Assembly (NCBI GenBank): GCA_963842945.1
Contig: CAWJIM010000023.1
Coordinates: forward strand, 320,001 to 384,000
Length of the DNA: 64,000 nucleotides
Direction of reading: 5' to 3'
DNA from: an uncultured Gemmatimonadales bacterium
Lineage (GTDB): Bacteria > Gemmatimonadota > Gemmatimonadetes > Gemmatimonadales > GWC2-71-9
Positions 6,840-64,000 of the stretch are shown here, piece by piece. A model generated the notes under the pieces. The model was not told the DNA's origin and searched no databases. It saw only the letters and a program-made list of their open reading frames with translations. Position 1 is the stretch's first letter. Each line of letters starts with the position of its first letter. A program made the translations under genes and the position numbers.

Positions 6840-6931
6840 TTGCCAACCACTCCACCGGTAGTGAAAGCAGGGAGAACAGGGCACCGGGAGAACCGCGTAG
6901 ATTTTAGCAAGATAAGATGCGGCAACGGCTT

Positions 6932-6960
6932 TTGACAATCGCTTCACCTGCCGGTACTTT
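6932..6960 (+). promoter_or_regulatory. Sigma70-type promoter upstream of dnaE
   Basis: TTGACA-17 nt-TACTTT. Confidence 0.65.
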
Positions 6961-7201
6961 CACTCGGTGTCCGAATACATTCGACTGTCGGCGGTCGGGT
7001 TCGGTGCTGACGGATTGGCCGGCTCGCTGGCGACAATCAGGACGCGCTCGACCGCAGATCTTCACCGCCTGGCCCCACTTTTCCCATCGCGCCGCGGGAC
7101 CTTGTTGCCCAGGGCACACCCGCGGCCTGTCCAGTGCACGCGTCGAAACCAGACTGGTGAGCGGCGGGTTGATGAATACTGACTCATGATCCGCGACTGA
7201 T

Positions 7202-38286: not shown

Positions 38287-38667
38287 ATGGCGACCCCCCT
38301 GCCGGTCGAGCCGCACATCATCAGCGTGCTGGTGGTGGACGACGAAGAAGTGATGCGCGCTCTCCTCATCCGCACCATGGAGTTCGAGCACTACCGGGTC
38401 TACTCGGCAGCCGATGGAGTGGAAGCCCTGGCGGTCTTTGAGAAGAACTTTCCCATCGACCTGGTGATCGCGGATGTGAGCATGCCGCGCATGGATGGCC
38501 GCGAGCTCGCGCTGGAGCTGGCCCGGCGGCAGCCGCACCTGCCAGTGGTGCTCATCTCGGGGGTTTACCTCCACGGTGGGTCCGATCTTCCGGGGCCCGT
38601 ATTGCCCAAGCCGTTCACCCCGATGGCCCTTGCGGCGCGGGTGCGGGAAGTGCTTTCCCTTTCCTGA
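38287..38667 (+). CDS. Single-domain response regulator
   Basis: VLVVDDE, DLVIADVSMPRMDG, ISG, KPF. Confidence 0.92.
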   Translation: MATPLPVEPHIISVLVVDDEEVMRALLIRTMEFEHYRVYSAADGVEALAVFEKNFPIDLVIADVSMPRMDGRELALELARRQPHLPVVLISGVYLHGGSDLPGPVLPKPFTPMALAARVREVLSLS

Positions 38668-38750: not shown

Positions 38751-39038
38751 GTGGACGTTCGCGAGGCAAGGCTCAAAGAAGAGTTTGCGGCTCAGTACCC
38801 CGGCATCCCTCCCGAGGTTTGGCTTCCCGTGGCCGAGCTGGCCCGGAAGCTGGTAGAACGTCACCAGAGCGGGCGGAAGGCCGGCCGCTTCACCCGGACG
38901 TTCGATCCCACCCACTTCGAGTTCCGCGGCGGCGCGAGCGAGCGACGCTCTCGCGGGTCTCGCACCCGGATTACCGACCGGAAGCATCCTCCTACTCGGC
39001 AGCTCCCAGATTCTGAAGGCCCCCGACTCGAATCCTGA
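38751..39038 (+). CDS. Small unrecognised protein, HFEFRG family copy A
   Basis: GGAGG RBS then GTG; REARLKEEFAAQYPGIPPEVW..THFEFRGG. Confidence 0.8.
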   Translation: MDVREARLKEEFAAQYPGIPPEVWLPVAELARKLVERHQSGRKAGRFTRTFDPTHFEFRGGASERRSRGSRTRITDRKHPPTRQLPDSEGPRLES

Positions 39039-39091
39039 TCGGCTGACTCGTCCCAGTTGATTTCACGCGGGAACCGGGTGATCCTCACGCG

Positions 39092-40168
39092 ATGAATTCA
39101 CCCCGGCGTCTGATTCGCGACCCTGAAGGCCTCAATACCGCCTCCTGGCCCGTTCCTCCCCAGGATTTCATCACCCCGGTCGATCGCTTTTTCACCCGGA
39201 GCCATGCGGCGGTTCCCCGGATCGATCCCCAATCCTGGCGGCTCGAGATCGGCGGACTGGTGGAGCATCCGCGGAGCTACTCTCTGCCCGAGCTGATGAG
39301 CGCATTCACCCGGCGGACCGTAGCGGCTACGCTGGTGTGTGCCGGCCTTCGGCGGGACGAGTTTCTCCACCTGGGGCCACTGCCGGGAGAGCTTCCCTGG
39401 GGGCCGGAGCCGGTGAGCGCGGGCGAATGGACCGGCCTGGCTCTGGGCGATCTGCTGCAGGCTATCGGGGTGAAGGGTGAGGCCCGCCACGTGGAGCTGA
39501 TCGGTCTCGATCGCGTAGAGCGCCATGGCCGGGAATTCGGCTTCGGCGGATCCATCGACCTGGCCAAGGCGCAGAGCGATGAGGTGCTGCTCGCCACCCA
39601 TCTGAACGGCGCTCCTCTTCCCCCTGCCCACGGCTTTCCGCTTCGGGCGGTGGTGCCCGGCTGGATCGGGGCCAGGAGCGTGAAGTGGCTGGGTCGGATG
39701 AATCTGCGGAGGGATCCCACCGACAACTACTTCCAGACTCAGGCCTACCGGGTGCAGCGCGAGCTGAATCCGCGAGACCCGCGTGACGTGTCGGCGGGAA
39801 CCGCGCTGACAGAGGTTCCGGTGAATTCGGTGATCGTGCATCCCGAGCCGAACCAGCTATTGGCGCCCGGCAGAACGATCGTGCGCGGCTGGGCGATGGG
39901 CTCCGCCGCCCGGCTGATCACCAGAGTCGAGGTGACAACCGAGGGCCGGGACGAGTGGGTCCCCGCCCGCATCCTGCCTCAGGAGTCGGCTTGGACCTGG
40001 GCCTTCTGGGAGGCGGAGCTCGACCTCGAGCCGGGGCAGTACGTCCTGTGCGTGCGGGCCAGCGACAGCTCCGGCGCCACCCAGCCCTCCGATGTGCGGG
40101 ACGCCTGGAACGTGAAGGGGTACGTCAACAACGCGTGGCACCGGGTGCCGGTCAGGGTGGAGCGCTAG
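39092..40168 (+). CDS. Sulfite oxidase-family molybdoenzyme
   Basis: FFTRSH, TLVCAGLRR (Mo-ligating Cys), HGFPLRAVVPGWIGARSVKWL, WNVKGYVNNAWHR. Confidence 0.92.
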   Translation: MNSPRRLIRDPEGLNTASWPVPPQDFITPVDRFFTRSHAAVPRIDPQSWRLEIGGLVEHPRSYSLPELMSAFTRRTVAATLVCAGLRRDEFLHLGPLPGELPWGPEPVSAGEWTGLALGDLLQAIGVKGEARHVELIGLDRVERHGREFGFGGSIDLAKAQSDEVLLATHLNGAPLPPAHGFPLRAVVPGWIGARSVKWLGRMNLRRDPTDNYFQTQAYRVQRELNPRDPRDVSAGTALTEVPVNSVIVHPEPNQLLAPGRTIVRGWAMGSAARLITRVEVTTEGRDEWVPARILPQESAWTWAFWEAELDLEPGQYVLCVRASDSSGATQPSDVRDAWNVKGYVNNAWHRVPVRVER

Positions 40169-40287
40169 TATTGGGCTGCTACGCGCTTCCCCGACGCCCG
40201 CGGGTCCAATAGTTTAGGGTCGTCCGCATGGTGGTGCGCGCCCTGCCAGTGCCCACCCACTACTCGATCGCGTCCAACACTCAGAAT

Positions 40288-40953
40288 ATGCGGCTTCCTT
40301 TGCTGGCGCCGTCCTCAAGATTGCTGCGCTCCCCCTGGCTGCTTCCCGCATGCATGATCGGGATCAGTGCCATGGCGCTCCTGGCTGCCCGGGTTTGGAC
40401 CGACTGGTCCCGGCTGCTATACCTGGTGCCCTACACCTTTCTCGGCAACTCGCTGGCCCCGTTGCCCTACGATGGCGCCGTGCTGTATCTGGGTGGCCGC
40501 TACTCGTTGGCGCTGATCGTGCTGGTCGCGGTACTGGCGACGCTGGTGATCGAGGCCTGGAACATGGAGCTGCTGAGGCGACTCATGGCCCGCGAGGGCA
40601 CGCGAGGGTTTCGGTCTCATCGGATCACCCAGTGGTCTCTCCGGTGCTATCGCAAGGCGCCATTCTGGTCTCTGGTGGCCACCTGCGTGCTGCCGATCGT
40701 GCCTCACTATCCCATGCGAGTTCTGGCCGTGCTGGCGGAATACCCGATGTGGAAGTACCAGCTCTCGGTGGTGCTCGGCCGGGGAACCCGCTATCTCGGG
40801 CTGGCTGGAATGGGGTTGGCCTATCGGGTCCCGGGTCCCTGGATTGCCGTGGGGAGTCTGGTGGTGCTGGCACTGGGTATTCGCGCGGCGCGCCGGATGA
40901 ATGAGTCGGGCGAGAGCATCACCACCCTGCCGCCGATAGCAGAGGAAGCATGA
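40288..40953 (+). CDS. VTT/DedA-like membrane protein
   Basis: Multi-TM; LPIVPHYPMRVLA..YP..KY...VVLGRGTRY pattern. Confidence 0.6.
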   Translation: MRLPLLAPSSRLLRSPWLLPACMIGISAMALLAARVWTDWSRLLYLVPYTFLGNSLAPLPYDGAVLYLGGRYSLALIVLVAVLATLVIEAWNMELLRRLMAREGTRGFRSHRITQWSLRCYRKAPFWSLVATCVLPIVPHYPMRVLAVLAEYPMWKYQLSVVLGRGTRYLGLAGMGLAYRVPGPWIAVGSLVVLALGIRAARRMNESGESITTLPPIAEEA

Positions 40954-42509
40954 ACCGCTGTTTTCTGCTGCTGGTGGATGGACTCCGTCCCGATGTGGCT
41001 CAGCGAAGGCTCGAGCTGGGTGACCTTCCCCATCTCGCGAGCATGCTGCGCCGGGGCGGCAGCACCACCGCCATCACCGGGTTCCCTTCGACAACTAGCG
41101 TTGCGTATCTGCCGTTCCTCACCGGGTGTGCCCCAGGCCGGTGTGACATTCCCTCCATTCGCTGGCTCGACCGGACGACCTATGGCGGACGCTGGTGGCG
41201 CGATCGCGCTGCGGTGCGGAGCTATTGCGGCTATCAGGCGCCCATGCTGGACGCCGACATCAACCCCGCGGTGCAGACCATCTTCGAGCTGGTGCCGGAA
41301 AGCGTCGGGATTTTCACCCCGGTGGCCCGTGGGCTCGACCGGAGCAGGGACCCCTCCCGGTTGGAGCGACGGATCTGGGGCTCGGTGGCCCATGCCGCCA
41401 AGTGGCACCAGCCCTCCGATGATTCGGTGGCGCGCCACCTCCTCAAGGCGGCCGCGCAGGATTGGCGTTTCGTGTTCGCCCAGTTCCCTGCGGTGGACGG
41501 CTACACCCATCAATCGGGCCACGATTCCGCCCCCGTCCACCGGGCCTTGCGCAAGGTGGACGAGACGGTGGGCCGGCTGCGCGACCTGCTGCGGCGCCGG
41601 GGAGAGCTGGAGCGGAGCCTGATCCTCCTGGTGAGCGACCACGGGGCCTCGCCGGTGCACACCCATCTCGACCTGGCCGACTGGTTCCGGGAGCAGGGCA
41701 TCCCCACCATGTCCCACCCCGTCATCTGGGAGCGGAGCCCGCGGGCGGCGGTGATGGTGGCCGGCAACGGTTCGGCGATGGTGTACGCTCGACCCGACGA
41801 CCGCCGGAACCGCCGCTGGTCGTTCGAGCGGCTGCGCCAGCCCCAGGCATTCGGCAGCGGCCGTGACCTGCTGGCCGCGCTGTCGGCCGAACCGGCGGTG
41901 GCGTTGATAGCGGCCGAATCGGAACACGGCGGGATTGCCGTGGCGAGCGGAGATGGCGAGGCCCGTCTCCATGAAGAGAATGGGCTGGTCGAGTACCGAC
42001 CCTGGGCCGGAGATCCCCTGCAGATGGGAGGCGCCTGGAAGGGCACCTCCCGCGACTGGCTGGAGCAGACGTGGAACGGGACCTTCCCCGATGCGGCGTT
42101 TAACCTGCTGGACCAGTTCCGCACCCGCCGCACGGGCGATCTGCTGGTGGTGGCGCGGGAGGGATACGATTTTCGCGACCGGTTCGAGGTGCCGGAGCAC
42201 CGGGCCGGCCACGGCAGCCTGATCCGGGTGCACATGCAGACACCCGTTTGGGCCAGCGAGCCGGTGCCGAGCAGCGCGCTCAGGACCGTGGACCTCTTCC
42301 CGGCGATGCTGTCGTGGCTGGGTGTGCCGGTACCGGATGATATAGATGGCGAGAGCGTGTGGAACCCGGCCCACTCCGCCCAAGAGAACTTCTCACCGCG
42401 CGGTGGAGGTCGGGGCCTAAGCCGTCGGGCCCATTCACCTGTAGTTGCAAAGAGCGTCCCAGTCGGCCAACTTCCCCTCACATTTCGGGTCCGTAGCTCA
42501 GTTGGATAG
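40950..42509 (+). CDS. Alkaline phosphatase superfamily (nucleotide pyrophosphatase/phosphodiesterase) protein; true 3' end probably earlier
   Basis: LLLVDGLR, FPSTT nucleophile, DGYTH, LVSDHG, GHGSL, RTVDLFP. Confidence 0.85.
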   Translation: MNRCFLLLVDGLRPDVAQRRLELGDLPHLASMLRRGGSTTAITGFPSTTSVAYLPFLTGCAPGRCDIPSIRWLDRTTYGGRWWRDRAAVRSYCGYQAPMLDADINPAVQTIFELVPESVGIFTPVARGLDRSRDPSRLERRIWGSVAHAAKWHQPSDDSVARHLLKAAAQDWRFVFAQFPAVDGYTHQSGHDSAPVHRALRKVDETVGRLRDLLRRRGELERSLILLVSDHGASPVHTHLDLADWFREQGIPTMSHPVIWERSPRAAVMVAGNGSAMVYARPDDRRNRRWSFERLRQPQAFGSGRDLLAALSAEPAVALIAAESEHGGIAVASGDGEARLHEENGLVEYRPWAGDPLQMGGAWKGTSRDWLEQTWNGTFPDAAFNLLDQFRTRRTGDLLVVAREGYDFRDRFEVPEHRAGHGSLIRVHMQTPVWASEPVPSSALRTVDLFPAMLSWLGVPVPDDIDGESVWNPAHSAQENFSPRGGGRGLSRRAHSPVVAKSVPVGQLPLTFRVRSSVG

Positions 42510-42560
42510 AGCGCTTGCCTCCGGAGCAAGAGGTCGCGCGTTCGAGTCGCGCCGGGCCCA
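42487..42560 (+). tRNA. tRNA-Arg(CCG)
   Basis: GGGTCCGTAGCTCAGTTGGATAGAGC..CTTGC-CTCCGGA-GCAAG..TTCGAG..CGGGCCCA. Confidence 0.96.
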
Positions 42561-42567
42561 CTCTCAT

Positions 42568-42584
42568 CAAGAGGTCGCGCGTTC
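42568..42584 (+). repeat. 17-nt direct repeat of tRNA-Arg internal segment (att-like)
   Basis: CAAGAGGTCGCGCGTTC identical to 42527-42543. Confidence 0.8.
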
Positions 42585-42840
42585 ACGCACCCGCTGCGCG
42601 GGTACCCGGCGCCGAGCCCATTCCAGAATTCAATCCCCGCTTGCATCTCCCTCGCTGGCGGGGGCGTTGTTTTCCTTCCAAAATGATCCTTGATCCAGTT
42701 GATCCCCCCCGAGACTCGGCGCAGGCGGTCGTCTCCGATTGCCGTCTGGGCCAGGCGCCCGAATTGTCCTCCCAACCGTGCCTCCAGGGGGGAAGGCGGG
42801 ATGCTTACCTTACCAAGCAGATGAAGAAAAGGAAGCAGGA

Positions 42841-43848
<1,008 letters not shown>

Positions 43849-43857
43849 GCCGAGATT

Positions 43858-44172
43858 ATGGTCCCCAAGAAGAAGAGGATTCATCGCCGGCGCGACGCCG
43901 ACCCCGCCGAGGGCCTCAAGAAGTACGGCCAGACCCGATTTGCCGATCCGACCAACAAGAAATACCCGATCGACACGCCCGGCCGGATCAAGGCGGCCTG
44001 GGCCTATATCCACCAGCCCAGCAATGCCCGGAAGTACAGCGCAGCCGAGCGCCGGACCATCACCGGCCGAATCAGGCAGGAGGCGAAACGCCGGAGGGTG
44101 ACGCTTCCCGACCCCGAGGAGTTCCTGGAGCTGATGGCGCGGGTGCGCTCCCGGAGTCGAAGCTCCAACTAG
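43858..44172 (+). CDS. Small basic protein, DUF6582-like
   Basis: FADPTNKKYPIDTPGRIKAAWAYI..Y...E...I..RI; family assignment from memory. Confidence 0.7.
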   Translation: MVPKKKRIHRRRDADPAEGLKKYGQTRFADPTNKKYPIDTPGRIKAAWAYIHQPSNARKYSAAERRTITGRIRQEAKRRRVTLPDPEEFLELMARVRSRSRSSN

Positions 44173-44173
44173 G

Positions 44174-44452
44174 TCAGAAGGTGGTGTCCTCCAGGGCGAA
44201 CCGCACCGCGTCCACCGAGGTATGGATCGGGCCTTCCCGCAACACCGTGAAGGCCTTCCGCTGATTGGGGCTGCCCCCGGTAATAAACCAGGCGTAACAC
44301 AGGAGGGCGCGGGGATGCCCCAGGATGTCGAACAGGGCTACCTCGAACTGCTGGTTCTGCTCCCGGACTCGCTCGGAGGCCCGGTAGGTGGCGGGGCAGC
44401 GATGAGCACGCTCGACCGCCGCCTTCAACTGCGCGATTTCAGTATCGTTCAT
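44174..44452 (-). CDS. Small hypothetical protein
   Basis: MNDTEIAQLKAAVERAHRC..FDILGHPRALLCYAW..TVLREGPIHTSVDAVR; ATG 8 nt after the upstream stop. Confidence 0.7.
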   Translation of the reverse strand: MNDTEIAQLKAAVERAHRCPATYRASERVREQNQQFEVALFDILGHPRALLCYAWFITGGSPNQRKAFTVLREGPIHTSVDAVRFALEDTTF

Positions 44453-44460
44453 CCTATACC

Positions 44461-44737
44461 TTACGCAGGACTGTTGCGCCTGCGGGACTCGCTGCGTGAT
44501 TGTGGGGTCGAGGCGCCGCCGCGGAACTCGAAATGGTCGGACCGGAGAACCCGCTCGGGGGCCATGTACCCGCGGTCCGGCTGGCGAAGCATCCAGGCCA
44601 CCACCCGGTCCGCCATCAGCGCTGCCGACTCCCAGTGCGCCGGCTCCAGCGGTGGATACAGGTGAGCAAACTCGGGCCTGAGGCGCGCCTCTCGAATCCT
44701 TGGTTCCTGGAGATCGCTTCGGTCTTCGATAATCCAC
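44461..44737 (-). CDS. Small unrecognised protein, HFEFRG family copy B (absent from ORF track; 1-nt shift near start)
   Basis: Manual translation ..EPRIREARLRPEFAHLYPPLEPAHWESAALMADRVVAW..ERVLRSDHFEFRGGAS..SPA*; RBS AGGAGAGGA before GTG 44737. Confidence 0.8.
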
Positions 44738-45011
44738 GCTCCTCTCCTGGTCGCACGTGTCCCGCGCCGCGCCGTTGGCCCAGCCCGGAACGACGTTGTC
44801 CAGTGGTATACCGCTGTAATCCGGCTATACCGGTGGGGCTTCCAACTGCGAGGAAACTAGCGGATCAAGCCCCTCCTGCCGTGACTCTGCTCACGCGTGT
44901 CGCCAGCGACCATTTCTTGATGTAGCTTAGGAAAACAGAGCCGAACGGCTCACCCGTTTCGCCCTCCTCGTGGGGAGGGCTCCTGAACGCCCTCGAGGCG
45001 CCGGAGCCTTC

Positions 45012-45827
45012 ATGCCCACGCATCGTATCGCCTATTCCCGCCGACGCGAGTCCGCCCATACGCTGCCGTACGTGGAGCCCATTGCCCTGGTTCCGCGTCC
45101 CGATCCCTTCGATGATCCCGACTGGATCTTCGAGCCCAAGTACGACGGCTTTCGCGGTCTGGCGTATTCCTCCGGCTCCGGCTGTGAGATCCGATCCCGC
45201 CGCGACATTCCCCTGAGACGGTTCGAGGACCTCTGGAACCGGCTGTCCGAGGTGCTGCGAGGAAGAGAGGCCATCCTGGATGGGGAGATCGTGGCCCTCG
45301 ACCGGAAGGGCAAACCGGTCTTTGACCGTCTGGTCCGGCGTCAGGGGTTCATAGCGTTCGCCGCGTTCGATCTGCTCTGGCTGGACGGACAGGACCTCAG
45401 AGGCGAGCCCCTGGTCAGCCGAAAGGAGCTGCTCGGTTCCCTGCTGCCGGAGGACACCGGGCCTCTGTACAAGGTGCTCGCCATCGAGGAGCATGGCCGG
45501 GCGCTTTACGGGGCGGCAAGGCGAATGGATCTGGAGGGGATCGTGGCCAAGCGGAAAGCCGATCGGTACGAGCCGGGAACGGTCTGGTACCGGATTGCCA
45601 ATCCGGCACACCGGCGAATCCACGGCGCCCTCCCGGCCGGGGCACCTCAGGGAACGCCCTGCGCACTCCGCTCCCGATCGATAGACGGTTGCCGTGCCTG
45701 CCCCGGGATTGACTCCAACCCCGGGACCCACAACCTTGTACACCGAGTTGGTCAGACGGTCGGCCTCAATCGAGCCGGTCATCTCGCTCGCCGTAACCCC
45801 GTGACTATCACAACTGCTCCTTCGTGA
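45012..45827 (+). CDS. ATP-dependent DNA ligase adenylation domain without OB fold (3' end uncertain)
   Basis: WIFEPKYDGFR (motif I), LDGEIV (III), AFDLLWLDG (IIIa), LEGIVAKR (IV); similarity ends near 45620. Confidence 0.8.
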   Translation: MPTHRIAYSRRRESAHTLPYVEPIALVPRPDPFDDPDWIFEPKYDGFRGLAYSSGSGCEIRSRRDIPLRRFEDLWNRLSEVLRGREAILDGEIVALDRKGKPVFDRLVRRQGFIAFAAFDLLWLDGQDLRGEPLVSRKELLGSLLPEDTGPLYKVLAIEEHGRALYGAARRMDLEGIVAKRKADRYEPGTVWYRIANPAHRRIHGALPAGAPQGTPCALRSRSIDGCRACPGIDSNPGTHNLVHRVGQTVGLNRAGHLARRNPVTITTAPS

Positions 45828-48604
45828 CTAGAAGACCGTGGATGGAGCGGCTGAGGCCCTACCTCTGGGCCGTGATTGCAACAGCCGTGGCAATCCTGCT
45901 CCGCTCGGCCCTGACCCCCATCGTCGGGGTGAGGCTGCCGTTCATCACGCTGTTCCCCGCGGTATTCGTCTCGGCCTACCTGGGCGGTTTCGGCCCCACC
46001 GTTCTGACCACCCTGGTCGGCATGACGGTCGCCGTGTTCTGGTTTAGCGGACCCACGTACGCCGCCACCTTTTCCGACCCCATCGCTCAAATCGGATTAG
46101 CGCTTTTCGGCCTCTCCGGCGCCGCCATCGGCTGGTTGGGTGAGACTCGGTTTAGAGCCCATCTCAAGACCGCGGAGGCGTTGCGCATCGCGGAACGGGA
46201 AATGGCCCGGGCGGAGCAGGAGGCGGTCCGGGCGGAGGAAGAGGCGGCCCGCGCCGAAGAGGAGTCAGCCCGGGCCGAGGAAGAAACCCTGCACTCCGAG
46301 GAACAGACCGCCCGCGCCGAGCAGGAGGCGAAGCGTGCGGCGCAGGCATCGGAGCGGGTGGAGCGCATTCTGAGCAGCATCACCGACGCCTTCACCGTGG
46401 TGGATCACCAGTGGACCATCACCTATATGAATGAACGGGCCGCGGCGATGGCCGGAGGAAAGCCTTCGGACTACATAGGCCGGAACCATTGGGAGGCCTT
46501 TCCGGCCATGGTGGGCAGCCCGTTCGAGGATGCCTACCGGCGCGCCGTGGCCGGCGAGCACGCGGCCAAGGTCACGGCTTTCTACCCGCCCCGCGAGATC
46601 TGGATCGAGGCCACGGCATATCCCTCGGTTGAAGGCTTGACCGTCGTAGCGCAGGACGTGACCCACCGGGTCCGGGCGAACGAGGCCACCGCAAGGCTCG
46701 CCGCGATCGTGACCTCCTCCGAAGACGCCATCATCGGCAAAAAGCTGGATGGTACGGTCACCAGCTGGAACCACGCCGCCGAGGAGATCTTCGGCTATAC
46801 CGAGGCGGAGATGGTCGGGAGCTCGATCTACCGGCTGATTCCGGCCGAGCTGCATGACTCGGAGACCGATATCCTGCGGCGCGTGTCCCGGGGTGAGCCG
46901 GTCGAATTTTCCGAGGTCGAGCGCGTCCGGAAGGACGGCCAGCGGATCCATATCGCACTCTCGGTCTCCCCCATCCGGGACGGCTCGGGGAAGGTGGTGG
47001 GTGCCGCGTCGGTCAAGCGCGACGTCACGGAGCGAAAGCGGATTCAGGCGGCGCTGGAAGCCGAAAGCGCCCGCAGCCGGGAGTTGGCCCAGGCGCTGGA
47101 GGTAGCCCAGGCGTTAGTCCGGGACTTGGACGGGCGGATCACGTACTGGAGCAGTGGCGCGGCCCGGCTGTACGGATTCACCGCCGCGGAGGCCATTGGC
47201 CGGGTCTCGCACGAGCTGCTGCAGACCGAGTTCCCACTGCCGCTGGAGGAGATCCGGAGCGCGTTGCAGGCCGCGGGCCGCTGGCAGGGCGAGCTGGTCC
47301 ACGTGGCCAAAGACGGACGCCGGATCCACGTGGCCGCCCAGTGGATCCTTCAGCGGCGCCGGCGCGAGGAGTCAGCGTCGGTTATCGAGGTTACCACCGA
47401 CGTCACCGCCCAACGGCTGATCGAGGAAAGGGTGCGGCAGAGCGAGCGGATGGAAGTGGTCGGACAGCTCGCCGGCGGTGTGGCCCACGAAGCCAACAAT
47501 CAGATGACGGTCGTCCTCGGCGCTTCGAGTTTTCTGCTGGGCCGCCCCGATCTTCCGGAAGCCGCCCGAAAGGACCTCGAATACATCCGGGAGGCGGCCG
47601 AGCGCACTGCGGCCATAACAGCTCAGCTCCTTGCCTTCAGCCGCCGGCAGGTCGTGCAGACCCGGGTCTTCGAGCTGGACGACGTGATCCAGGGGCTCGA
47701 GGGCGTCCTCCGCCGCGCCCTGGGCGAGCGCTCAACGCTCGTGCTGCAGCTCCGGGCCGGCAGCCGGGTCAACGCCGATCCGGGTCAGGTGAGCCAGGTG
47801 CTGCTGAATCTCGTGCTCAACTCGCGCGACGCCATGCCCCTGGGTGGACGCCTCAGCATCGAAACCCTCGTCACCGAGCTGACCGAATCCTATGCCAAGC
47901 AGCGGCCCGGCGTGGCCATCCGGCCCGGCTCCTACGCCGTGGTGGCGGTCAGCGATACCGGCCACGGCATGGGACCTGAAACCCTGGGCCATCTGTTCGA
48001 GCCGTTCTACACGACCAAGCCCATTGGTAAGGGCACCGGGCTCGGACTGGCCACCGTCTATGGAATCGTGAAGCAGAGCCAGGGTTACGTCTGGGCCTAT
48101 AGTGAACTGGGCCAGGGCACCACATTCAAGATCTATCTACCGCTCGACGCGTCCTCGGTGGCCCCCACCGCGATGGCTGAGCCGCCGGCCCGGGCCACAG
48201 GTGAGACGGTGCTTCTGGTGGAGGACGAGCCCGCCGTCCGGATCATGACCTCGCGGGCGCTGCAGGAATTCGGCTATGGGGTCATCGAGGCGAGCGGAGG
48301 ACATCAGGCGCTCGGAGTGCTGGAACGGAAGGACACCCCCATCGATCTGCTGATCACCGACGTAATTCTGCCCGGCATGGATGGTCCCGAGCTGGCCCGC
48401 CGCGCCGCGGAGCTCACCTCAGATCTGCCGGTGCTCTTCATCAGCGGCTACACCGACGCCGAGATCGTCCGCCGCGGCTTGCTTCAGGAAGGTCAGCCGT
48501 TTCTGCAGAAGCCATTCACTCCGGAAGCCCTGGCGGTGCAAGTCACCAGGCTGCTGAAGCAAAAGGTCAAGTCAGGCAAGCGGAGCACCGCCGGAGTGCG
48601 CTAG
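45824..48604 (+). CDS. Hybrid sensor histidine kinase (DUF4118-like TM, 3 PAS, HisKA, HATPase, REC)
   Basis: PFITLFPAV..GG.GP TM region; PAS/PAC DVT motifs; AHEANN; FEPFYTTK..GTGLGL; C-terminal receiver. Confidence 0.93.
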   Translation: MTRRPWMERLRPYLWAVIATAVAILLRSALTPIVGVRLPFITLFPAVFVSAYLGGFGPTVLTTLVGMTVAVFWFSGPTYAATFSDPIAQIGLALFGLSGAAIGWLGETRFRAHLKTAEALRIAEREMARAEQEAVRAEEEAARAEEESARAEEETLHSEEQTARAEQEAKRAAQASERVERILSSITDAFTVVDHQWTITYMNERAAAMAGGKPSDYIGRNHWEAFPAMVGSPFEDAYRRAVAGEHAAKVTAFYPPREIWIEATAYPSVEGLTVVAQDVTHRVRANEATARLAAIVTSSEDAIIGKKLDGTVTSWNHAAEEIFGYTEAEMVGSSIYRLIPAELHDSETDILRRVSRGEPVEFSEVERVRKDGQRIHIALSVSPIRDGSGKVVGAASVKRDVTERKRIQAALEAESARSRELAQALEVAQALVRDLDGRITYWSSGAARLYGFTAAEAIGRVSHELLQTEFPLPLEEIRSALQAAGRWQGELVHVAKDGRRIHVAAQWILQRRRREESASVIEVTTDVTAQRLIEERVRQSERMEVVGQLAGGVAHEANNQMTVVLGASSFLLGRPDLPEAARKDLEYIREAAERTAAITAQLLAFSRRQVVQTRVFELDDVIQGLEGVLRRALGERSTLVLQLRAGSRVNADPGQVSQVLLNLVLNSRDAMPLGGRLSIETLVTELTESYAKQRPGVAIRPGSYAVVAVSDTGHGMGPETLGHLFEPFYTTKPIGKGTGLGLATVYGIVKQSQGYVWAYSELGQGTTFKIYLPLDASSVAPTAMAEPPARATGETVLLVEDEPAVRIMTSRALQEFGYGVIEASGGHQALGVLERKDTPIDLLITDVILPGMDGPELARRAAELTSDLPVLFISGYTDAEIVRRGLLQEGQPFLQKPFTPEALAVQVTRLLKQKVKSGKRSTAGVR

Positions 48605-48687
48605 CCGCTTTACGGGCCAGCGCGGTCCGGACCTGACTTGCTCCTCCGGCCGGAATACTTCTTACTTCAGCAGTGCTCGCCACCCAA

Positions 48688-51501
48688 ATGCGTAGAGGAG
48701 TTACCCCCTACCTGATTACCGGGGCCGCCGTGCTGCTCATGACGGTGGTCCGCTGGCTGTTGGACCCCATCCTGGCCCAACAGCTTCCATTCATCACCTT
48801 CATTGTTGCCGCACTGTTCGCTGCCTGGCTGGGCGGGCTCGGGCCCGCCCTGTTTGCCACTGTGGTGGGCGGCGCGCTCGCCCTCTTCCTCTTCATCCCT
48901 CCGGCATACTCGCTCCACTCGATCGGGACCATGGGCACGGTGGGGATGCTGCTGTTCGTCCTGACCGGCTTGACCGCAGGATTGCTGGGCGAATCTCGCC
49001 TCCGGGCCCAGGCCCGCGCCGAGGCGTCAGCGATCGAAGCCCAAAACGCGGCGAACCTGGCTCGGTCGGAGGCCAGGCGCGCCCAGAGGAGAAATCGCGG
49101 GCCGAGGCCGCCGCGCTGGAGGCGGAAGAAGCGCTCAACCAGCAGCTCGAGGTGGAGGCGGCGCTCCGGAGCAGCGAGGCGCGCTTTCGCGCCATGGCCG
49201 AGTCGTCTCCCCTGGGCATCTACATCACCGACCCTGCCGGTGATTGCTTCTACACCAACCCGGCCTACCAGCGGATCTCCGGATTGAGCGAACAGCAGGC
49301 CCGGGGAACCGGATGGAGCAAGGCGATTCACCCGGAGGACCGGGAGCGAGTGTTCCGGGAGTGGTATCAGGCGGCGGAGCGCAGAATTCCCTTCCAGAGT
49401 GAGCATCGATTTGCCCACGCCGACGGCAAGGTGGTGTGGACCCGGGTGAACGCCGCGGAGATCACCGACGAGGAACAACTCGTAGGGTACGTCGGGCTGG
49501 TGGAGGACATCTCGCAGCACGCGGCGGCTCAGACGGCGCTGCGGCAGAGCGAGGAGCGCTACCGGGCATTCATCGAGCAGACGGCGGAGGGTGTCTGGCG
49601 ATTCGAGATGGAGCAGCCGGTGCCGGTGACGCCTGCCCGAGGACGAGCAAATCGAGCGCTTCTATACCCACGCCTATCTGGCCGAATGCAACGACGCCCT
49701 GGCCCAGATGTACGGCTACAGCAAGGCGGGAGAGCTGATCGGTGCGCGCCTGGGTGACATGGTGCCCCGCTCCGACCCGCAGAACCTGGAGTACCTCCGC
49801 GCATTCATTCGGAGCGGGTACCGCCTGACCGACGCGGAATCGCACGAAGTCGATCGCGAGGGAAACGAGCGCTACTTCCTGAACAACCTGATCGGATTCG
49901 TATCCGAGGGACGAACTGCGGCGCGCCTGGGGCTCCCAGCGCGATGTTACGATCAATCGACAGGCCGAGTCCGCCATTCTGGCCAGCGAGGCCCGTTTTC
50001 GCAGCGTGTTCGAGTCGGGCATGATCGGTATCGCCTTCTGGAACGGCCAGCTGATCACCAGCGCCAATGATGTCCTGCTCGACATGCTGGGCTACACCAG
50101 AGAGGATCTGGCCCAGGGGCGGCTTCGGCAGGGCCGCCTCACCCCGCCGGGATACGAGGGGGCTGACCGTAAGGCTACCGAGGAAACCCGGCTCAAGGGC
50201 TCATGCACTCCGTACGAAAAGGAGTTTTTGCGGAAGGATGGAACCCGGGTTCCCGTACTGGTGGGAGGAGCTCGGCTGGCCGATCACATGGCCGACGCCG
50301 TGTTCTTCGTGCTGGATCTTACGGCCCGCCGCCAGGCGGAGGACCGCCTGCGACAGGCGGAGCGAATCGAGGTCGTGGGTCAGCTGGCGGGTGGCATGGC
50401 CCACGAAGCCAACAACCAGATGTCCGTGGTCCTGGGCGCCGCCAGCTTCATTCTCGCCCGGAAGGACCTGCCCGAGCCCGTGAGACAGGACGTGGACTAT
50501 ATCCGGCAGGCCGCCGAACGCACCGCGTCCATCACCCGCCAGCTGCTCGCCTTCAGCCGGCGGCAGATCCTCAAGCCCGAGGTGGTAGATCTGAACGCGG
50601 TGCTGAACAACCTTCAGCCCATTCTCCGCCGCACTCTGACCGAACAGCAGACGCTGGAGCTCCGGCTGGATCCGACGGTGGCTCCGATACGGGCCGACCC
50701 GGCCCAGCTCGATCAGGTCCTGCTGAACCTCACGATCAATGCCCGGGACGCGATGCCCGACGGCGGCACCTTGACCATCGAGACCCGCGAGGTGGAGCTG
50801 GCCGACGAGTATGCCGCCCGGCGGCCGGGCGTCTCCATCATTCCGGGCACGTACACCGCTTTGGTCGTAGCGATACCGGCCATGGCATGGATCAGGAAAC
50901 GATGAAGCATCTGTTCGAGCCGTTCTTCACCACCAAAGCCGTCGGACAGGGAGCGGCCTGGGCCTGGCGATGGTGTACGGCATCGTGAAGCAGAGCGGCG
51001 GATAACATCTGGGCTTACAGCGAGCCCGGCATGGGAACGACCCTCAAGCTGTATTTCCCCTCGGTGCGGGAATCGGCGAGCGGATCCGCGCCCAGCGGAG
51101 CCGGATCAGCCGAGCGCCGAGCTGCCAGCGGAAGGATACTGATCGTCGAGGACGATCCCCTGGTGCGGGAGATGGCCCGGCGCTCGTTGTCCGAGGCGGG
51201 ATACGAGGTAATGGAGGCGGCCAACGGACAGACCGCGCTGGATCTGGTCTCCCGAGGGCTCGCGGAGTCGATGCGGTGCTCACCGACCTCGCAATGCCGG
51301 GCATGGGCGGACGAGAGCTGGCGCGGCGACTGTGGGAGAGCCGGCCCAGCTCTGCCGGTGGTCTTCATGTCGGGCTACACCGATGACGTCGTCATTCGCC
51401 GCGGCCTGCTGGAGAGCGGAGTCCCGTTTCTGGAGAAGCCGCTGTCCCCCGTCGAGCTCGCCCGAAAGATGCGACAGGTGCTCAATGGCGGAATGCTGTG
51501 A
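48688..51501 (+). CDS. Hybrid sensor histidine kinase paralog (multiple frameshifts)
   Basis: Same TM module, three [25 protein letters not shown] and receiver across ORFs 48673, 49152, 49708, 50006, 51031. Confidence 0.85.
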
Positions 51502-51662
51502 GCAACCTCACTCCCCTCGTCTCCCGACAACTACATATATTTCCTCGCCCTGTCGGGCCGGGGTTGTGACACTCCGAGCGGGCCTTGGTCATCGGAGACA
51601 GCGTCCAACCCCGAACTCAAGGCCGTCGCTCTCCGCGGCGGCCCTCCTCAAGGAGTCGAGGC

Positions 51663-52096
51663 ATGGCTAATCGTGAAGGGGGCAAACCTGGCGGCGGAGG
51701 CGGCGGCCAAGGTGGCGGTGGTGGTCAGAAGGGTGGTGGCGGCGGACAAGGCGGCGGTGGGGGCCAGAAGGGCGGCGGCGGTGGCGGCGGTGGTCGACCC
51801 GGAGGACCTGGTGGTGGTGGCGGACAGGGTGGCGGCGTGGCGGGGCGGGCAAAAGGGCGGCGGCGGTGGCGGCGGTGGTCGTCCCGGCGGTCCGGGTGGC
51901 GGCGGTGGTCAGGGCGGCGGCGGTGGCGGCGGCGGTCGTCCTGGTGGTCCGGGTGGCGGCGGCGGCCAGGGTGGCGGCGGACAGGGTGGTGGAGGTGGCG
52001 GTCAACGAGGGGCGGTGGCGGCGGTGGACAGGGTGGTGGTGGGCGGGCGGCGGTGGCTGGGGCGGCGGCGGTGGAGGCCAGGGAGGCAACCGGTAG
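51663..52096 (+). CDS. Extremely glycine-rich small protein (frameshifted)
   Basis: AAGGAG RBS, MANREGGKPGGGGGGQGG..; GGY codon runs; ends GGQGGNR-TAG. Confidence 0.7.
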
Positions 52097-52122
52097 GTAA
52101 ACAGCGCAACAGGCGTGATGAA

Positions 52123-52157
52123 CGCCTCACTCTCTCCGAGAGTGGGGCGCTCTTCTT
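52123..52157 (+). terminator. Terminator after Gly-rich gene
   Basis: CGCCTCACTCTC-TCC-GAGAGTGGGGCG followed by CTCTTCTT. Confidence 0.65.
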
Positions 52158-52277
52158 ACCGGGGGTACGGCGGGCTATACTAGGGACTGGCTTAACTTCA
52201 GATCTTCGCCGACACATCCGGCTTCAGATCACTGTCTCTCTACCTGCCATCGGGGTGGTGCGGCGCGAGGAGATCGA

Positions 52278-52715
52278 ATGAGCTCAAAGCGCGGACGCGA
52301 AGGGAGACTCAAGCCGCAACACGCCAATCTGTATCCTGGGCTGGAGCCGGGGGTCTGGCTGCCGGTCGAGAACCTGATTCGGCACGTTACCCAGCTGATC
52401 TACCAGGACCCGTCACGGCGCCGGGTCATTACCGGGCCACGGCTCTTGCATCAGGAGCACTTCGAATATCGCGGTGCATCGGAACGGCCCGAGGGATTGC
52501 CCGCCAGCGCCAGTCGCCTGAGCGACTCCAGCGCCGAGCCCAGCAGGTTCCCTCCACCCGGACCGAGGCCGATCAGCGGAACCAGAGAGGACCGACTTCA
52601 TGAGCCAACCCCCCCGAGCAGGAGTGCAAGCCGGCCGGCGCGTGCGCGCCGACGTACGGCAGGCGCTCCTCAAGTCGAGCTCCGCCCATCTCTATCCCGG
52701 TATCCCGCCGGGTGA
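52278..52715 (+). CDS. HFEFRG family copy C (true stop may be near 52603)
   Basis: GAGGAG RBS; REGRLKPQHANLYPGLEPGVWLP..RLLHQEHFEYRG. Confidence 0.8.
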   Translation: MSSKRGREGRLKPQHANLYPGLEPGVWLPVENLIRHVTQLIYQDPSRRRVITGPRLLHQEHFEYRGASERPEGLPASASRLSDSSAEPSRFPPPGPRPISGTREDRLHEPTPPSRSASRPARARRRTAGAPQVELRPSLSRYPAG

Positions 52716-52917
52716 GTGGCAGCCCGCCACTGTCATGGTTCAGCTGGTGTTGGCGCTCAAATCAGCCAACGGTCGTGCTCCCTCGGCCCGCGATCGCATT
52801 CTCGACGGCGACCACTTCGAGTTTCGCGGCCGGCTTTCCGCCGGAGGTCAGGACGACCAGCGCCGAACCCGACTCGAGGAACGGCATGATCGCAAGGAGG
52901 GGACCCTGGACGCGTGA
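52600..52917 (+). CDS. HFEFRG family copy D
   Basis: GAGAGGA RBS; RQALLKSSSAHLYPGIPPGEWQP..RILDGDHFEFRG. Confidence 0.8.
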   Translation: MSQPPRAGVQAGRRVRADVRQALLKSSSAHLYPGIPPGEWQPATVMVQLVLALKSANGRAPSARDRILDGDHFEFRGRLSAGGQDDQRRTRLEERHDRKEGTLDA

Positions 52918-53087: not shown

Positions 53088-53510
53088 ATGACCCTCCTTC
53101 CCGATGTTCGCAGCGCCCCCAGCATTCTCGTAGTCGACGACATGCCGACGGTACGCCGTATGGCGCACCGGCTGTTGACCGAATGGGGCTTCCGGGTATT
53201 CGAAGCCGAGAGCGGCGAAGAGGCGATCGAGGTATTGGAGACGGCAAAGGGGGGAGTCCAGCTGGTCATCGTGGACGTGATTCTTCCGCTTCTCGATGGC
53301 GTCCAGGTAACCCGCCGAATTCAGGAGCGCTGGCCCGGTCAGCGTACGCTCTATATGTCCGCCCACCCGGCCGAGGTGCTGGCCCAGCATGGGCTGACCG
53401 AGCTGAGCGTACCTTTCCTGGCCAAGCCGTTCACCCGCGACGAGCTGCTCACCAAGGTGAGTGAGGCGCTCGCCCGGCCCAGCTCCCCCGCCCAGAGGCC
53501 ACCTCGCTAG
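53088..53510 (+). CDS. Single-domain response regulator
   Basis: ILVVDD, LVIVDVILPLLDG, YMSA, FLAKPF. Confidence 0.92.
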   Translation: MTLLPDVRSAPSILVVDDMPTVRRMAHRLLTEWGFRVFEAESGEEAIEVLETAKGGVQLVIVDVILPLLDGVQVTRRIQERWPGQRTLYMSAHPAEVLAQHGLTELSVPFLAKPFTRDELLTKVSEALARPSSPAQRPPR

Positions 53511-53656
53511 AGCCCGGCCCTCCCGAGCTCGTGGTCCACAAGCCGGCCCGCGAGTGTCCGGTCAGCGAGCCTCATCCCCCCGACAGCTGCGGCATCGTCA
53601 AGGCACGGCGCGAACGACAGCTGGCGTTGACGTCCGCCTCCCCGGCCCGAACCAAG

Positions 53657-54888
53657 TCACGAGCGAGCCCGGCCCAGGGTGAAGTAAAACGTCGCTCCCT
53701 GCCCCACCAGACCTTCTGCCCATACCTTCCCGCCATGGCGGTGGATGATGCGTTGAACCGTGGCGAGCCCGATGCCGTTCCCGGGAAACTCCTGCTGGGA
53801 ATGCAGCCGCTGAAAGGGGCCGAACAGCCGGGCGGCGTACGTCATGTCGAAGCCGGCCCCGTTGTCGCGGATGAAGTAGGTCGGCTCGCCTGAGGCTCTG
53901 GGTCACCCCGAACTCGATTCGCGGCTCCGCCTGCTTGCCGGTGAACTTCCAGGCGTTCTGCAGCAGGTTCTCCATGGCGATCTTCAACAGCTGGCCGTCC
54001 CCCGTCACCACCACTCCCGGGCGGATCTTCACCTCCACCCGCCGATTCGGCTGGGCTTCCTGCAGCCGGCTCACCACCAGCTCTGCCACCTCGCTGAGGT
54101 CTACGTCCTGGTCCCGCAGGTCGGTCCGGGTAACCCGGGAGAGGTACAGCACGTCGTCGATCAGCTGCGCCATCTGCTGGCTGGCCTCCCGCACCCGGCT
54201 CAGGAACTTGCGCCCCTCGTCGTCCAGCCGTCTTCCCTGACTCTCCAGAATGGCCCGGCTGAAACTGTCGATTCTTCGGAGCGGGGCGCGAAGGTCGTGC
54301 GAAACAGCATAGCTGAAGCTCTCCAGCTCCCGGTTCTTGTGCTCCAGCTCCCGGACCAGCTCGGCGCGGGTCTCGGCCAGCTCCAGCGCCGCCTGCTCGC
54401 TCTCCGCCAGCAGGGCGGCCTGGCGGCGGAGCAGCTCGTTCTTCTTGGCCAGCTCCACGAACACTGCCACCTTGGAGCGCACGAACTCCGGCACCACCGG
54501 CTTGACCAGGTAGTCCACGGCGCCGACGGCGTATCCTCGAACCGCCTGGGTCTGGGTGGTGTCGGCTGCGGTGAGAAAGAGAATCGGGGTATGGCGGGAG
54601 CGGTCGCGCTGCCGGATCAGCGTCGGCGGTCTCGAAGCCATCCATCTCCGGCATCTTCACGTCCAGCAGGATCACGGCAAAATCGTCGCTCAGCAGGCGC
54701 TTCAACGCTTCGCGCCCCGACTCGGCCCGGACCAGGTTCTGCCCGAGATCCTCCAGCATGGCCTCCAGGGCAACCAGGTTGGCGGGCTGGTCGTCGACGA
54801 GGAGGATATTGACCTCGGTCGTCGGTCAGGCGGCTGGCGGGGCGCTTCGCGGTCAGGCACCCGCCGTGGGTCAGCGATCCTCGTCCAT
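53657..54888 (-). CDS. REC-coiled coil-histidine kinase (frameshifted; start uncertain)
   Basis: [70 protein letters not shown]. Confidence 0.88.
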
Positions 54889-61596: not shown

Positions 61597-63943
61597 ATGC
61601 TGCCAGATCCGCTCCGCATACTCATCCTGGAAGACGTGCCGATGGACGCCGAGCTGGTGGAGTATGAGCTCGAGCGGGCCGGGGTCCCGTTCATGTCCCA
61701 GCGGGTGGATACCCGGGACGGTTTCCTGCAGGAGCTGGACGGCTTTCAACCTCACGTGATCCTGTCGGACTACACCCTTCCCCAATTCGATGGGATGAGC
61801 GCGCTCTCGCTGGCCCGGGAGCGCGCCCCCAGCAATTCCCTTCCTGATCGTCACCGGATCGGTCAACGAGGAGACCGCCGTCGGCTGCATGAAGGCCGGC
61901 GCGACGGATTATCTGCTGAAGAGCAATCTGGCCCGGATCGGTCCGGCCATCGAAGCGGCGCTGGAGCGCGAGAGAGCGCGCGCGGAAAAAATCAGAGCCG
62001 AGTCGGCACTGGCCGCCAGCGAGCGAAGGTTCCGCTCGCTGGTGCAGAACTCCTCGGACCTGGTGACCATCGTCGCTCCCAACGGCTCGATCCTCTACGC
62101 CAGCGATTCGGCCGAACGGATCGTGGGCTACTCCCCCGCCGCGCTCGTCGGCACCAGCCTGATGGACTACGTCGCCCCAGACGACGCGGAGCCGATGCGA
62201 GCCTTGCTGCAGAACGGCGACAGCGCACCCAGCGAGACCGGTCCCCTCGAGTTCTGCCTCCGCCGGAGCGACGGCACCCCGGTGTGGCTCGAGGCGGTGG
62301 GTACCAACCTGCTGACCGACCCCACCATTCGGGGCATCGTGCTCAATGCCCGGGACGTGAGCGAGCGGAAGCGGGCCGATACCGCTCTGAGAGAGAGCGA
62401 GGAGCGCTACCGCGATCTGTTCGACAATGCCAGCGATCTGGTCTGCATGGTGGATCCAGCCGGCGTGCTGCTCTACGCCAACCATGCCTGGCAGCAGGGG
62501 ACGGGCTATGGCGCAGACGAGATCGGGAACCTGCAGCTTTCCGACATTCTTCACCCCGACAGCCGGCAGCACTATGCCGGCGTGATCGAGCGGGTGCTCG
62601 CCGGCGAGCGCCTGGACCACGTCGAGCTGGTGTTCGTCCCCAAGTCCGGACCGCCGATTACGGTCGAGGGTAACCTGAGCTGCACCTTCAAGGACGGGAG
62701 CCCATCAGGTATTCGGGGGATCTACCGCGATGTCACCGAGCGGAAGAAAATCGAGGAGCATCTCCGGCGGGCCGAGCGGATGCAGGCGGCCGGTAAGCTC
62801 GCGGGAGGCGTGGCTCACGAAGTGAACAACATGATGACGGGCGTGATCGGGTTCAGTGAATTCGTCATCCGCAGCTTCGACCAGGACGATCCCCGCCGCA
62901 GTGACATGGAAGAGGTGATCCGGGCCGCCAGCCGGGCGGCCGACGTCACCCGCCAGCTCCTCGCCTTTACCCGGCAGCAGTATCTGCAGCCGCGGATGGT
63001 CGACATCAACGCCGTGGTCCTCGATATGGAGAAGATGCTGCGCCGCTCCCTGGGCGAGGACAAGCACCTGGAGCTCCGGCTGGCTCCCCAGCTGGGCCAG
63101 ATCCGCGCCGACCGGGGGCAGCTGGAGCAGGTACTCATCAACCTGGTCCTGAACGCCCGTGACGCATTGACCGACCATGGCCGGGTGACCATCGAAACCA
63201 GCAGCACGGTGTGGGACGCCGCGTACGGCGAGCGCCACGGCGGGGTCGAGACCCCGCTGGGACACTACGTCATGCTCGCGGTGAGCGACAACGGCTGCGG
63301 CATGGACGCCGAGGTGCAGGCTAGAATCTTCGAGCCCTTCTTTACCACCAAGCCGGTGGGACAGGGCACCGGCCTCGGCCTATCGACCGTTTACGGCATT
63401 GTGAAGCAGAGCGGCGGCTTCATTTGGGCGTACAGTGAGCCGGCCCAGGGCACCGTCTTCAAGGTCTACCTTCCGGAGACGGTGGCCCCGGAGCACGGAA
63501 AGGTCACTCACGAGCCGGGCCACGACGTCGTAGCCGAGCATGGGGTCGAAAGCGTGCTGGTGATCGAGGACGAGGACGTGGTGAGGAACCTGGCCATCCG
63601 CGGCCTCAGAGATCATGGCTACACCGTGATCGAGGCCAGGAATGGGGTCGAAGCCCTGGACTACCTGAAGCGGTATCCCGGGAGCATCGATCTGGTTATC
63701 TGCGACGTGGTCATGCCGGAGATGGGAGGACGGGAGTTTGGGCAGCGTCTGGCCCTGCTCGAACCGGACCTTCCGATCCTTTTCATGTCGGGGTATACCG
63801 GTGAGGATGTGGTGCAGCGGGGGTTACTGGACCCGGGCGCCTCTTTTCAGCAAAAGCCCTTCACTCCGGGAATTCTGGCCACCAAGGTCAGATCCATGCT
63901 GGACCAGCGGCCGCAGACCCGGGTCCGGGAAGTCTCCCACTAA
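61597..63943 (+). CDS. Hybrid histidine kinase REC-PAS-PAS-HisKA-HATPase-REC (frameshift near 61835)
   Basis: [28 protein letters not shown]; two [23 protein letters not shown]; terminal receiver. Confidence 0.92.
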
Positions 63944-64000
63944 ATACCCTTAACCATCACGCCGATTGCGATTTCGCTTCGCTCTCGGCGGGACGAAACT

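Follow-up and report, generated by a model that had tools for sequence, protein, structure and literature searches.

What do four small genes of one unnamed kind do among the two-component genes of a Gemmatimonadales genome? The question is raised by a stretch of 64,000 nucleotides from an uncultured bacterium of that order (assembly GCA_963842945.1, contig CAWJIM010000023.1, positions 320,001 to 384,000; the whole stretch is called the window below), in which an earlier note, made from the letters alone, had pointed to four small open reading frames (ORFs), here copies A, B, C and D, that share two sequence blocks. Here we report that A to D are real genes and true paralogs of an undescribed family with a predicted alpha/beta domain of about 60 residues, and we propose with moderate confidence that this domain serves receiver (REC) domains as an effector or partner. 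The proposal is based on the enrichment of the family beside REC genes, together with natural proteins in which a REC domain with intact phospho-acceptor residues is joined through a linker to the family domain.

An undescribed family of real genes

All four ORFs are present and carry the two blocks given in the earlier note, and alignment confirms the paralogy: the copies are 38-42% identical to A and share 15 invariant columns (R4, L8, A13, Y16, P17, P21, W24, R42, R49, H55, F56, E57, R59, G60 and R73). The first block reads R-E-A-R-L-K-P-E-F-A-x-x-Y-P-x-x-x-P-x-x-W and the second H-F-E-[FY]-R-G. To the four copies a divergent fifth one, copy O, has to be added at the end of the window, and to the two blocks a third conserved one in the tail, R-[ST]-R-x-x-D, with its R in 0.92 and its D in 0.69 of 222 single-domain sequences.

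The window's genome, a metagenome-assembled genome (MAG) of 24 contigs with 86.9% completeness and 6% contamination, gives 21 profile matches, which represent 18-19 distinct genes at 16 loci, and the family as a whole comprises more than 3,000 clusters at 90% identity. When the six frames were scored for codon usage, the annotated one came first in each of the 16 copies tested. Within the orthogroup of copy G, the ratio of nonsynonymous to synonymous substitution rates (dN/dS) is 0.11-0.19 against the genome's own G in the 8 of 10 pairs with computable dS, the other two being saturated; the family genes are under purifying selection. Gene starts lie 0-6 residues ahead of the REARL block, and in the 120 nt ahead of 62 copies the one class of enriched words is Shine-Dalgarno (SD)-like (GGAGG and similar); no promoter or operator shared by the paralogs was found there. 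Every paralog has orthologues in 2-5 sister genomes. Taken together, the matches within the genome, the more than 3,000 relatives, the frame scores, dN/dS and the SD-like words place the resemblance beyond chance. A hint of expression exists for copy D, where two metatranscriptome libraries from a single study gave short contigs at 52619-52849, 52560-52710 and 52691-52841 (98-100% identity, 0-3 differences), although DNA can occur in such libraries. In the same two RNA runs A, B, the core of C and the window's two stand-alone receivers have no clean RNA cover, an absence that proves nothing.

The earlier note had matched the family to no named domain, and our searches agree, with no Pfam-A or NCBIfam family at E<=10 for A to D, and no PHROGs or PADLOC family for the 12 members scanned. 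A sequence profile search of the PDB gave just two WD-repeat rows (E 2.4-2.5, best E 2.4), and the ESM Atlas gave no usable match. The structural comparison proposed in the note was also made: the modelled domain finds nothing below E 2.6 in the PDB with Foldseek, and VIA-align against about 48,000 chains assigned no fold, with a best Z of 4.7 for the single-domain model and 3.7 for a tandem model, where unrelated models commonly score Z 7-8 and a failure to match does not prove a new fold. The motif strings occur in no relevant paper, while general surveys of output domains may hold relevant census data. Among the 120 matches listed, all but one carry the source name 'hypothetical protein'. 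The family is thus undescribed and without a detectable relative among known families or solved structures.

Enrichment beside receiver genes

The neighbours named in the earlier note are in place. Copy A follows a stand-alone receiver on the same strand (83 nt downstream of the gene, 93 bp from its REC domain), C and D come after hybrid kinases and precede another receiver (170 nt downstream of D, same strand), and B is divergent from an ATP-dependent DNA ligase gene. Copy O lies tail-to-tail, at 13 nt, with a hybrid histidine kinase (HK) of PAS-HK-REC type.

A REC hidden Markov model (HMM) built here finds 94 REC domains in the window's genome, a count equal to that of PF00072, and the window's and sister genomes hold 85-109 each. 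At five of the 16 loci a REC domain lies no more than 300 bp away (P at 16 bp, O at 50, A at 93, C/D at 174 and L at 196); random placement gives a mean of 0.38 and did not reach five in any of 5000 draws. Within 1 kb there are again five, with 0.78 expected (P = 0.0008). The enrichment of two-component neighbours beside relatives, which the earlier note had anticipated, extends to four contiguous sister genomes: of their 49 copies, 8 have a REC domain at 300 bp or less and 12 have one within 1 kb, and the Pfam annotation of 95 immediate neighbours in sister genomes agrees with these counts. Overall REC is enriched about 7-13 fold and is the sole recurrent neighbour of the family.

We mapped REC proximity on a maximum-likelihood tree of 64 copies, from which the permuted copies M18 and M21, the frameshifted copy N and E21, a near-duplicate of E18, were left out, and for which copy P was trimmed to its conserved part. 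The character 'REC within about 450 bp' requires 8 changes on this tree, and at least 5 changes are forced by well-supported branches alone. The REC-positive groups are O (4/4 genomes), C (3/5), D (2/4) and L184/L195, together with the single rows A, L, P and L202.

Natural fusions to receiver domains

Two longer proteins from the search of 50%-identity representatives, P0230 and P0215, carry PF00072 ahead of the family domain. A family-profile search for longer proteins gave 2 matches, neither with a Pfam domain, and the REC fusions came from the other searches. Restricting a search to the relevant region of P0230 gave 13 clusters at 90% identity (P0230 and 12 more) of 188-230 aa, all with precomputed PF00072 and with family domains 71-84% identical. 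The REC domain is N-terminal and is followed by a linker, by the family domain from G-R-R-E-A-R-L onwards and by the tail R-N-R-T-R-R-R-D-A-A. In the fused receiver D59 and T87 are invariant, and D13 and K105 are found in at least 90% of rows. The linker varies in length by whole codons, and such in-frame variation, repeated from cluster to cluster, speaks for genuine fusion proteins and against gene-caller read-through.

The other fusion, P0215, has a different receiver and is only 32% identical. By architecture the family domain takes the place of a response-regulator output domain in 14 fused clusters, while the window copies are free-standing; the 'output for receivers' suggested in the earlier note fits this position C-terminal to a canonical REC in 13 + 1 clusters. 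Within the window's genome the top match to the REC domain of P0230 is the receiver beside copy A, narrowly (1.5e-16 vs 2.4e-16) and at 39% identity.

Varied contexts and a possible more general role

Several observations weigh against a role tied to receivers. No REC domain lies within 300 bp at 11 of the 16 loci here or for 41 of the 49 sister-genome copies, and groups H, G and I (five genomes each) and several others are never REC-adjacent. The O, C and D groups share one conserved two-component-rich island and are not fully independent, and several REC neighbours converge tail-to-tail on the family gene, which precludes co-transcription. REC fusions are rare (14 clusters vs more than 3,000), and none was found in the five genomes of the window's genus that were searched. 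Receivers are also not the only domains found in frame upstream: the family domain follows GNAT in the genome's own copy I (contig C19:505488-506279) and in P0052, and follows a JGI-named HIT hydrolase in P0048, where Pfam matches nothing in that part. In addition, single-copy orthologues in other genera adjoin unrelated genes, with one of six contexts beside a hybrid kinase. Copy I, P0052 and P0048 share the short linker ..GDGAPSGVK[VL]GS.M, and their arrangement may be genuine fusion, or else a conserved 5' leader that is read through.

The single-copy contexts differ from genus to genus. In genera g15 and g36 the order is DUF1761, family gene, an 87-aa unknown, aldo/keto reductase, IspG and redoxins; in g30 the family gene lies between LeuRS and GNAT; in g6 it accompanies CorA, nitroreductase or DUF2721; in g5 an amidohydrolase lies downstream, as for the window genome's own copy L; in g37 the order is F420-type oxidoreductase, family gene, an 85-aa ORF and GNAT; and in g4 the family gene stands between a thioredoxin-like gene and a PAS-HK-REC kinase. 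Given these varied contexts, the ancestral copy had no fixed partner gene. Genome-wide, the copies are found in contexts that include GNAT, amidohydrolase, peptidase S13, PLD, aconitase, arginase, PKD, Big_1, radical SAM and others.

Such variety would suit a general small binding or regulatory module for proteins, metabolites or nucleotides, with receivers merely some of many partners. The GNAT and HIT-like domains upstream in frame and the whole orthogroups without a REC neighbour are in keeping with it, the 85-109 REC domains per genome form a background from which receiver neighbours could arise, and the conserved Arg and aromatic residues with the RxxD-containing tail might suit an anionic ligand. 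However, REC is the one neighbour that recurs, at the enrichment given above, the family has two separate REC fusions of which one is conserved over 13 clusters, and none of the 95 immediate sister-genome neighbours matches a GNAT family at E<=1e-5. We regard the general module as the main alternative, though a doubtful one. The signalling accessory module of the earlier note is supported in part, in that the family is unnamed, expanded, statistically tied to REC genes and in some proteins fused to REC, while most copies have unrelated neighbours.

Predicted fold and the alternatives it bears on

An AlphaFold2 (AF2) model of the family domain, built on 66 sequences, has the topology beta(5-8)-alpha(10-15)-beta(24-26)-alpha(27-40)-loop-beta(56-59), with a predicted local distance difference test score (pLDDT) of 83-92 for residues 1-40 and 88 for residues 51-60, and a low-confidence tail. 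The core of about 60 residues is accordingly predicted as beta1(EARL)-alpha1-beta2(W)-alpha2-beta3(HFEFR), followed by a putatively disordered tail with R-[ST]-R-x-x-D. A natural tandem protein was modelled with the same topology twice (pLDDT 67, predicted template modelling score 0.53). In the AF2 model of the single domain, H55 lies directly before strand 56-59.

The position of this histidine bears on the possibility, raised in the earlier note, that the family is a new histidine phosphotransfer (Hpt) protein, with the His of HFEFRG shuttling phosphate between hybrid kinases and stand-alone receivers. The His is invariant, the genomes are rich in hybrid HK-REC proteins, and fusions of REC to a second domain presumably resemble REC-Hpt arrangements. 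However, no Hpt match was obtained at E<=10, the prediction places the His on a beta-strand within an alpha/beta domain, where a four-helix bundle would carry it on a helix, and the genomes have canonical Hpt domains of their own (3-10 matches per genome). The family was, moreover, not found in 55 of the 96 genomes of its own taxonomic family, nor in 104 genomes of other families. The phosphotransfer idea thus found no support, and we consider it quite improbable.

The same note had offered a nucleic-acid-binding effector, which would here be a DNA- or RNA-binding output, a small regulator of transcription or translation using its N-terminal Arg strand and its Arg-rich tail. The tail is 17% Arg, the N-terminal strand has two conserved Arg, and the weak fold rows include SWIB/MDM2-like domains and parts of RNA polymerase. 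Charge gives this suggestion no support (median isoelectric point 8.2, core net charge -1, tail merely +1), neither Pfam nor NCBIfam returned a helix-turn-helix, ribbon-helix-helix or other DNA-binding family, and every fold row has Z below 5. A nucleic-acid-binding output is thus unlikely in our judgement.

The many dispersed paralogs, with about 60 N-terminal residues conserved up to FRGG and a more variable tail, could also be read as multi-copy precursors of ribosomally synthesised and post-translationally modified peptides (RiPPs), having a conserved leader ending in Gly-Gly and a variable core like dispersed lanthipeptide precursors. Copy G is in fact convergent on a radical SAM gene in 4 of 5 genomes; in the fifth (G165) its convergent neighbour is a protein of 523 aa without a family match at E<=1e-5. 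Against the precursor reading, the tail is not hypervariable and keeps R-[ST]-R-x-x-D, Cys is rare (0.25 per protein), no NCBIfam leader family of NHLP or Nif11 type matches at E<=10, no maturase recurs among the neighbours, and the supposed leader has a predicted domain fold and is found behind REC. Three of these points (the conservation of the tail, the scarcity of Cys and the missing recurrent maturase) led us to reject this reading as a very slight possibility.

A proposed mechanism

For the receiver-coupled role that we prefer, we envisage that phosphorylation of REC controls the family domain in cis in the fused forms, and that the stand-alone proteins are the split version, docking on a receiver in trans. 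The putative split pairs would be A behind the receiver at 38287, C and D ahead of the receiver at 53088, and O, P and L beside other receivers. The signal might then be passed to a target via a conserved face (R, Y, W, H, E, R) and the tail with R-[ST]-R-x-x-D, and the 4-25 paralogs per genome could provide different receivers or targets with an adaptor of their own.

A bolder form of this proposal, which we hold to be rather unlikely, is that the proteins are split response-regulator outputs: the clade would have detached a novel-fold effector from its receiver and multiplied it until a genome holds up to about 25 free-standing adaptors, each linking a different receiver to a different target via its sheet face and docking tail. 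If true, this would amount to a combinatorial wiring layer for about 100 receivers per genome. Even in the more cautious form, the family is a candidate route from single-domain receivers, including the two of the window, to their targets, for which candidate cognate pairs can be named (the receiver at 38287 with A, that at 53088 with C and D) beside the natural fusions of P0230 type. Its restriction to one clade and its expansion in one genus would make it a case of signalling networks growing by duplication of small adaptors.

Distribution and unusual forms of the family

A search of 5.8 billion proteins scored 7995 candidates, of which 3144 match at E<=1e-3, and an exhaustive search of 50%-identity representatives gave 708 clusters (399 at E<=1e-10). 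Those named by NCBI among the 120 matches listed come from MAGs of Gemmatimonadales. Across 201 genomes of the phylum, the family was found in one family-level clade alone, in 41 of its 96 genomes and in none of 104 from the other eleven families. In the window's genus every one of the 16 genomes is positive, with 4-25 matches each, compared with 1-3 in the other positive genera of the clade. A pattern scan of 185,579 species genomes confirmed 357 loci; the best 80 of these, mostly orthologues of copy G and kept out of the neighbour statistics, have Gemmatimonad* titles in all but one case, a 5.8-kb contig of a MAG labelled Microtetraspora. The family is confined to one family-level clade of Gemmatimonadales and expanded in the window's genus, so that 'lineage-expanded', the term of the earlier note, is apt, both for the 18-19 genes at 16 loci here and for the difference in copy number between genera.

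Some members depart from the single-domain form. M21 (contig C21:369592-369996) and M18 (C18:138758-139126) are circularly permuted or partial-tandem copies with the block order ..HFEFRD.., then ..REARLRPEY..YP..W.., then RLKPRYFGL, and metagenomes hold full tandem two-domain proteins of 170-190 aa (P0005, P0011, P0125 and others). M18 and M21 belong to near-identical two-gene segments near contig ends, E18/M18 (C18:138758-140636) and E21/M21 (C21:369592-371497), the latter 1.4 kb from the end of C21; this may be a recent duplication, or strain or assembly redundancy in a MAG with 6% contamination. Copy N (C19:269757-270104) has its N- and C-terminal halves in two frames, which reflects either a frameshift or an assembly indel.

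Copies and neighbouring genes in the window

Table 1. Family copies, receivers and adjoining genes, with coordinates counted from the first letter of the window
Feature	Coordinates	Strand	Remarks
Stand-alone receiver upstream of A	38287-38667	+	PF00072, E 8.9e-19
Copy A	38751-39038	+	95 aa, GTG start
Copy B	44461-44733	-	likely start ATT 44733
Glycine-rich ORF upstream of C	51663-52100	+	GGGGQGGG... repeats; reading frame switches within the window
Copy C	52278-52715	+	145 aa as assembled; conserved part ends near 52540
Copy D	52600-52917	+	105 aa
Stand-alone receiver downstream of C and D	53088-53510	+	PF00072, E 7.8e-23
PAS-HisKA-HATPase-REC hybrid kinase, convergent on copy O	61889-63943	+	
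Copy O, divergent fifth member	63957-64190	-	window holds the 3' part, 63957-64000

The start of copy B needs correction (Table 1). The earlier note gave it as 44461-44737, a span of 277 nt that is not a multiple of 3, and the GTG at 44737 is out of B's frame, which contains no ATG, GTG or TTG. Either B putatively initiates at ATT 44733, 5 nt behind AGGAGAGGAG, or a frameshift lies after codon 2 in comparison with P0031, a 91-aa orthologue of B. An independent soil-metagenome DNA contig (n=1, 151 nt, 3 differences) keeps the frame relation of B, its sole indel lying upstream at 44748. A 92-aa ORF without a family match (44174-44452, minus strand) begins 9 nt after the stop of B and adjoins a DUF6582 protein on the opposite strand (43858-44172, plus strand).

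Copy C as assembled overlaps D by 116 nt. In the sister genome G121, C is 95 aa long and its stop falls in a 4-nt overlap with the ATG of D. One DNA contig has an extra C behind 52553, and coordinate arithmetic then places the stop of copy C at 52601-52603, in the same ATGA overlap. On these two grounds the long tail is probably due to a 1-nt indel near 52553. The order glycine-rich ORF, C, D, REC is kept in G121, and since the same kind of glycine-rich ORF lies upstream of its C orthologue, the four genes form a conserved unit. In the window, the region 51663-52281 carries runs of GGGGQGGGG / GGGRPGGPGGGG directly upstream of C, and the frame jumps in this ORF suggest indel errors in G runs. 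Two kinases nearby are broken as well: at 48673-51501 a DUF4118-PAS-PAS-HisKA-(HATPase)-REC hybrid kinase falls into at least 4 overlapping ORFs in different frames, and a kinase at 53598-54759 (minus strand) is in two pieces; they are either pseudogenes or products of assembly indels. With likely indels nearby in the assembly, the frame problems of B, C and N should not, on the assembly alone, be taken as marks of pseudogenes.

Copies of O and C type also stand close together elsewhere. In three sister genomes (loci L183, L194 and L204) they are 0.7-3.6 kb apart, each time with a REC-HD_5 (HD-GYP-like) protein, and with a TauE exporter in two (G198, G165) and a PAS-HK-REC kinase in one (G125). 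In the window's genome O and C/D are about 11 kb apart in a similarly two-component-rich stretch (52278-64190), and the region looks like a conserved signalling island. Many family genes run tail-to-tail into a convergent gene, with a spacing of -4 to +8 nt that leaves no room for a terminator between the two (for example L025:6001-6273 / 6270-7841 and L026:2228-2488 / 2485-3825, as well as L184, L195, L201, L202 and L204). Such pairs join G to radical SAM, H to PLD and P to REC, and others to an SNF2 helicase or a MOSC-DinB protein. Further upstream in the window, a tRNA-Arg (CCG) gene lies at 42487-42561 between a phosphodiesterase-like gene and an aldo/keto reductase gene.

Comparison with known systems

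Dispersed multi-copy RiPP precursors with NHLP or Nif11-type leaders resemble the family in being numerous, small and scattered paralogs whose N-terminal part is conserved up to a Gly-Gly. In the family, however, as already set out, the tail motif is conserved, there is almost no Cys, and neither a recurring maturase nor an NCBIfam match was found. SWIB/MDM2-like domains (eIF2D C-terminal region, MDM2, BAF60) give the best and repeated VIA-align rows for the family model (5w2f_A with Z 4.7, root-mean-square deviation 3.0 over 62 residues; 6hfa_A with Z 3.4; 2z5s_M and 1v31 with Z 2.8). These scores are far below the Z 7-8 of unrelated models, and with an identity of 3-12% they provide no evidence of relationship. 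The Hpt domain (PF01627), a helical bundle with its phospho-His on an exposed helix, is likewise small and shares with the family an invariant His and an association with REC-rich phosphorelay gene sets, whereas the family has no match to its HMM and is predicted to be alpha/beta with the His on a strand.

PmrD and SafA, small 'connector' proteins of two-component systems, are single-copy and lineage-specific in enterobacteria. The family is similarly small (75-105 aa) and would similarly link or modulate two-component proteins by binding. In contrast to these connectors, with which it has no homology, it is large and paralogous and has fused forms too.

The family also resembles response-regulator outputs and the stand-alone partners of single-domain CheY-like receivers. 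The family domain stands C-terminal to a canonical REC in the 14 fused clusters, and elsewhere the family is encoded next to stand-alone receivers; in the searches made it has no sequence or fold relation to the catalogued outputs, and unlike them it is mostly free-standing, multi-copy and usually away from receivers. To the list of response-regulator outputs it would add an uncatalogued domain without detectable similarity to known folds. The domain is new while its category, a receiver-coupled output or adaptor, is a known one, and what is unusual is its deployment, mostly detached and multiplied.

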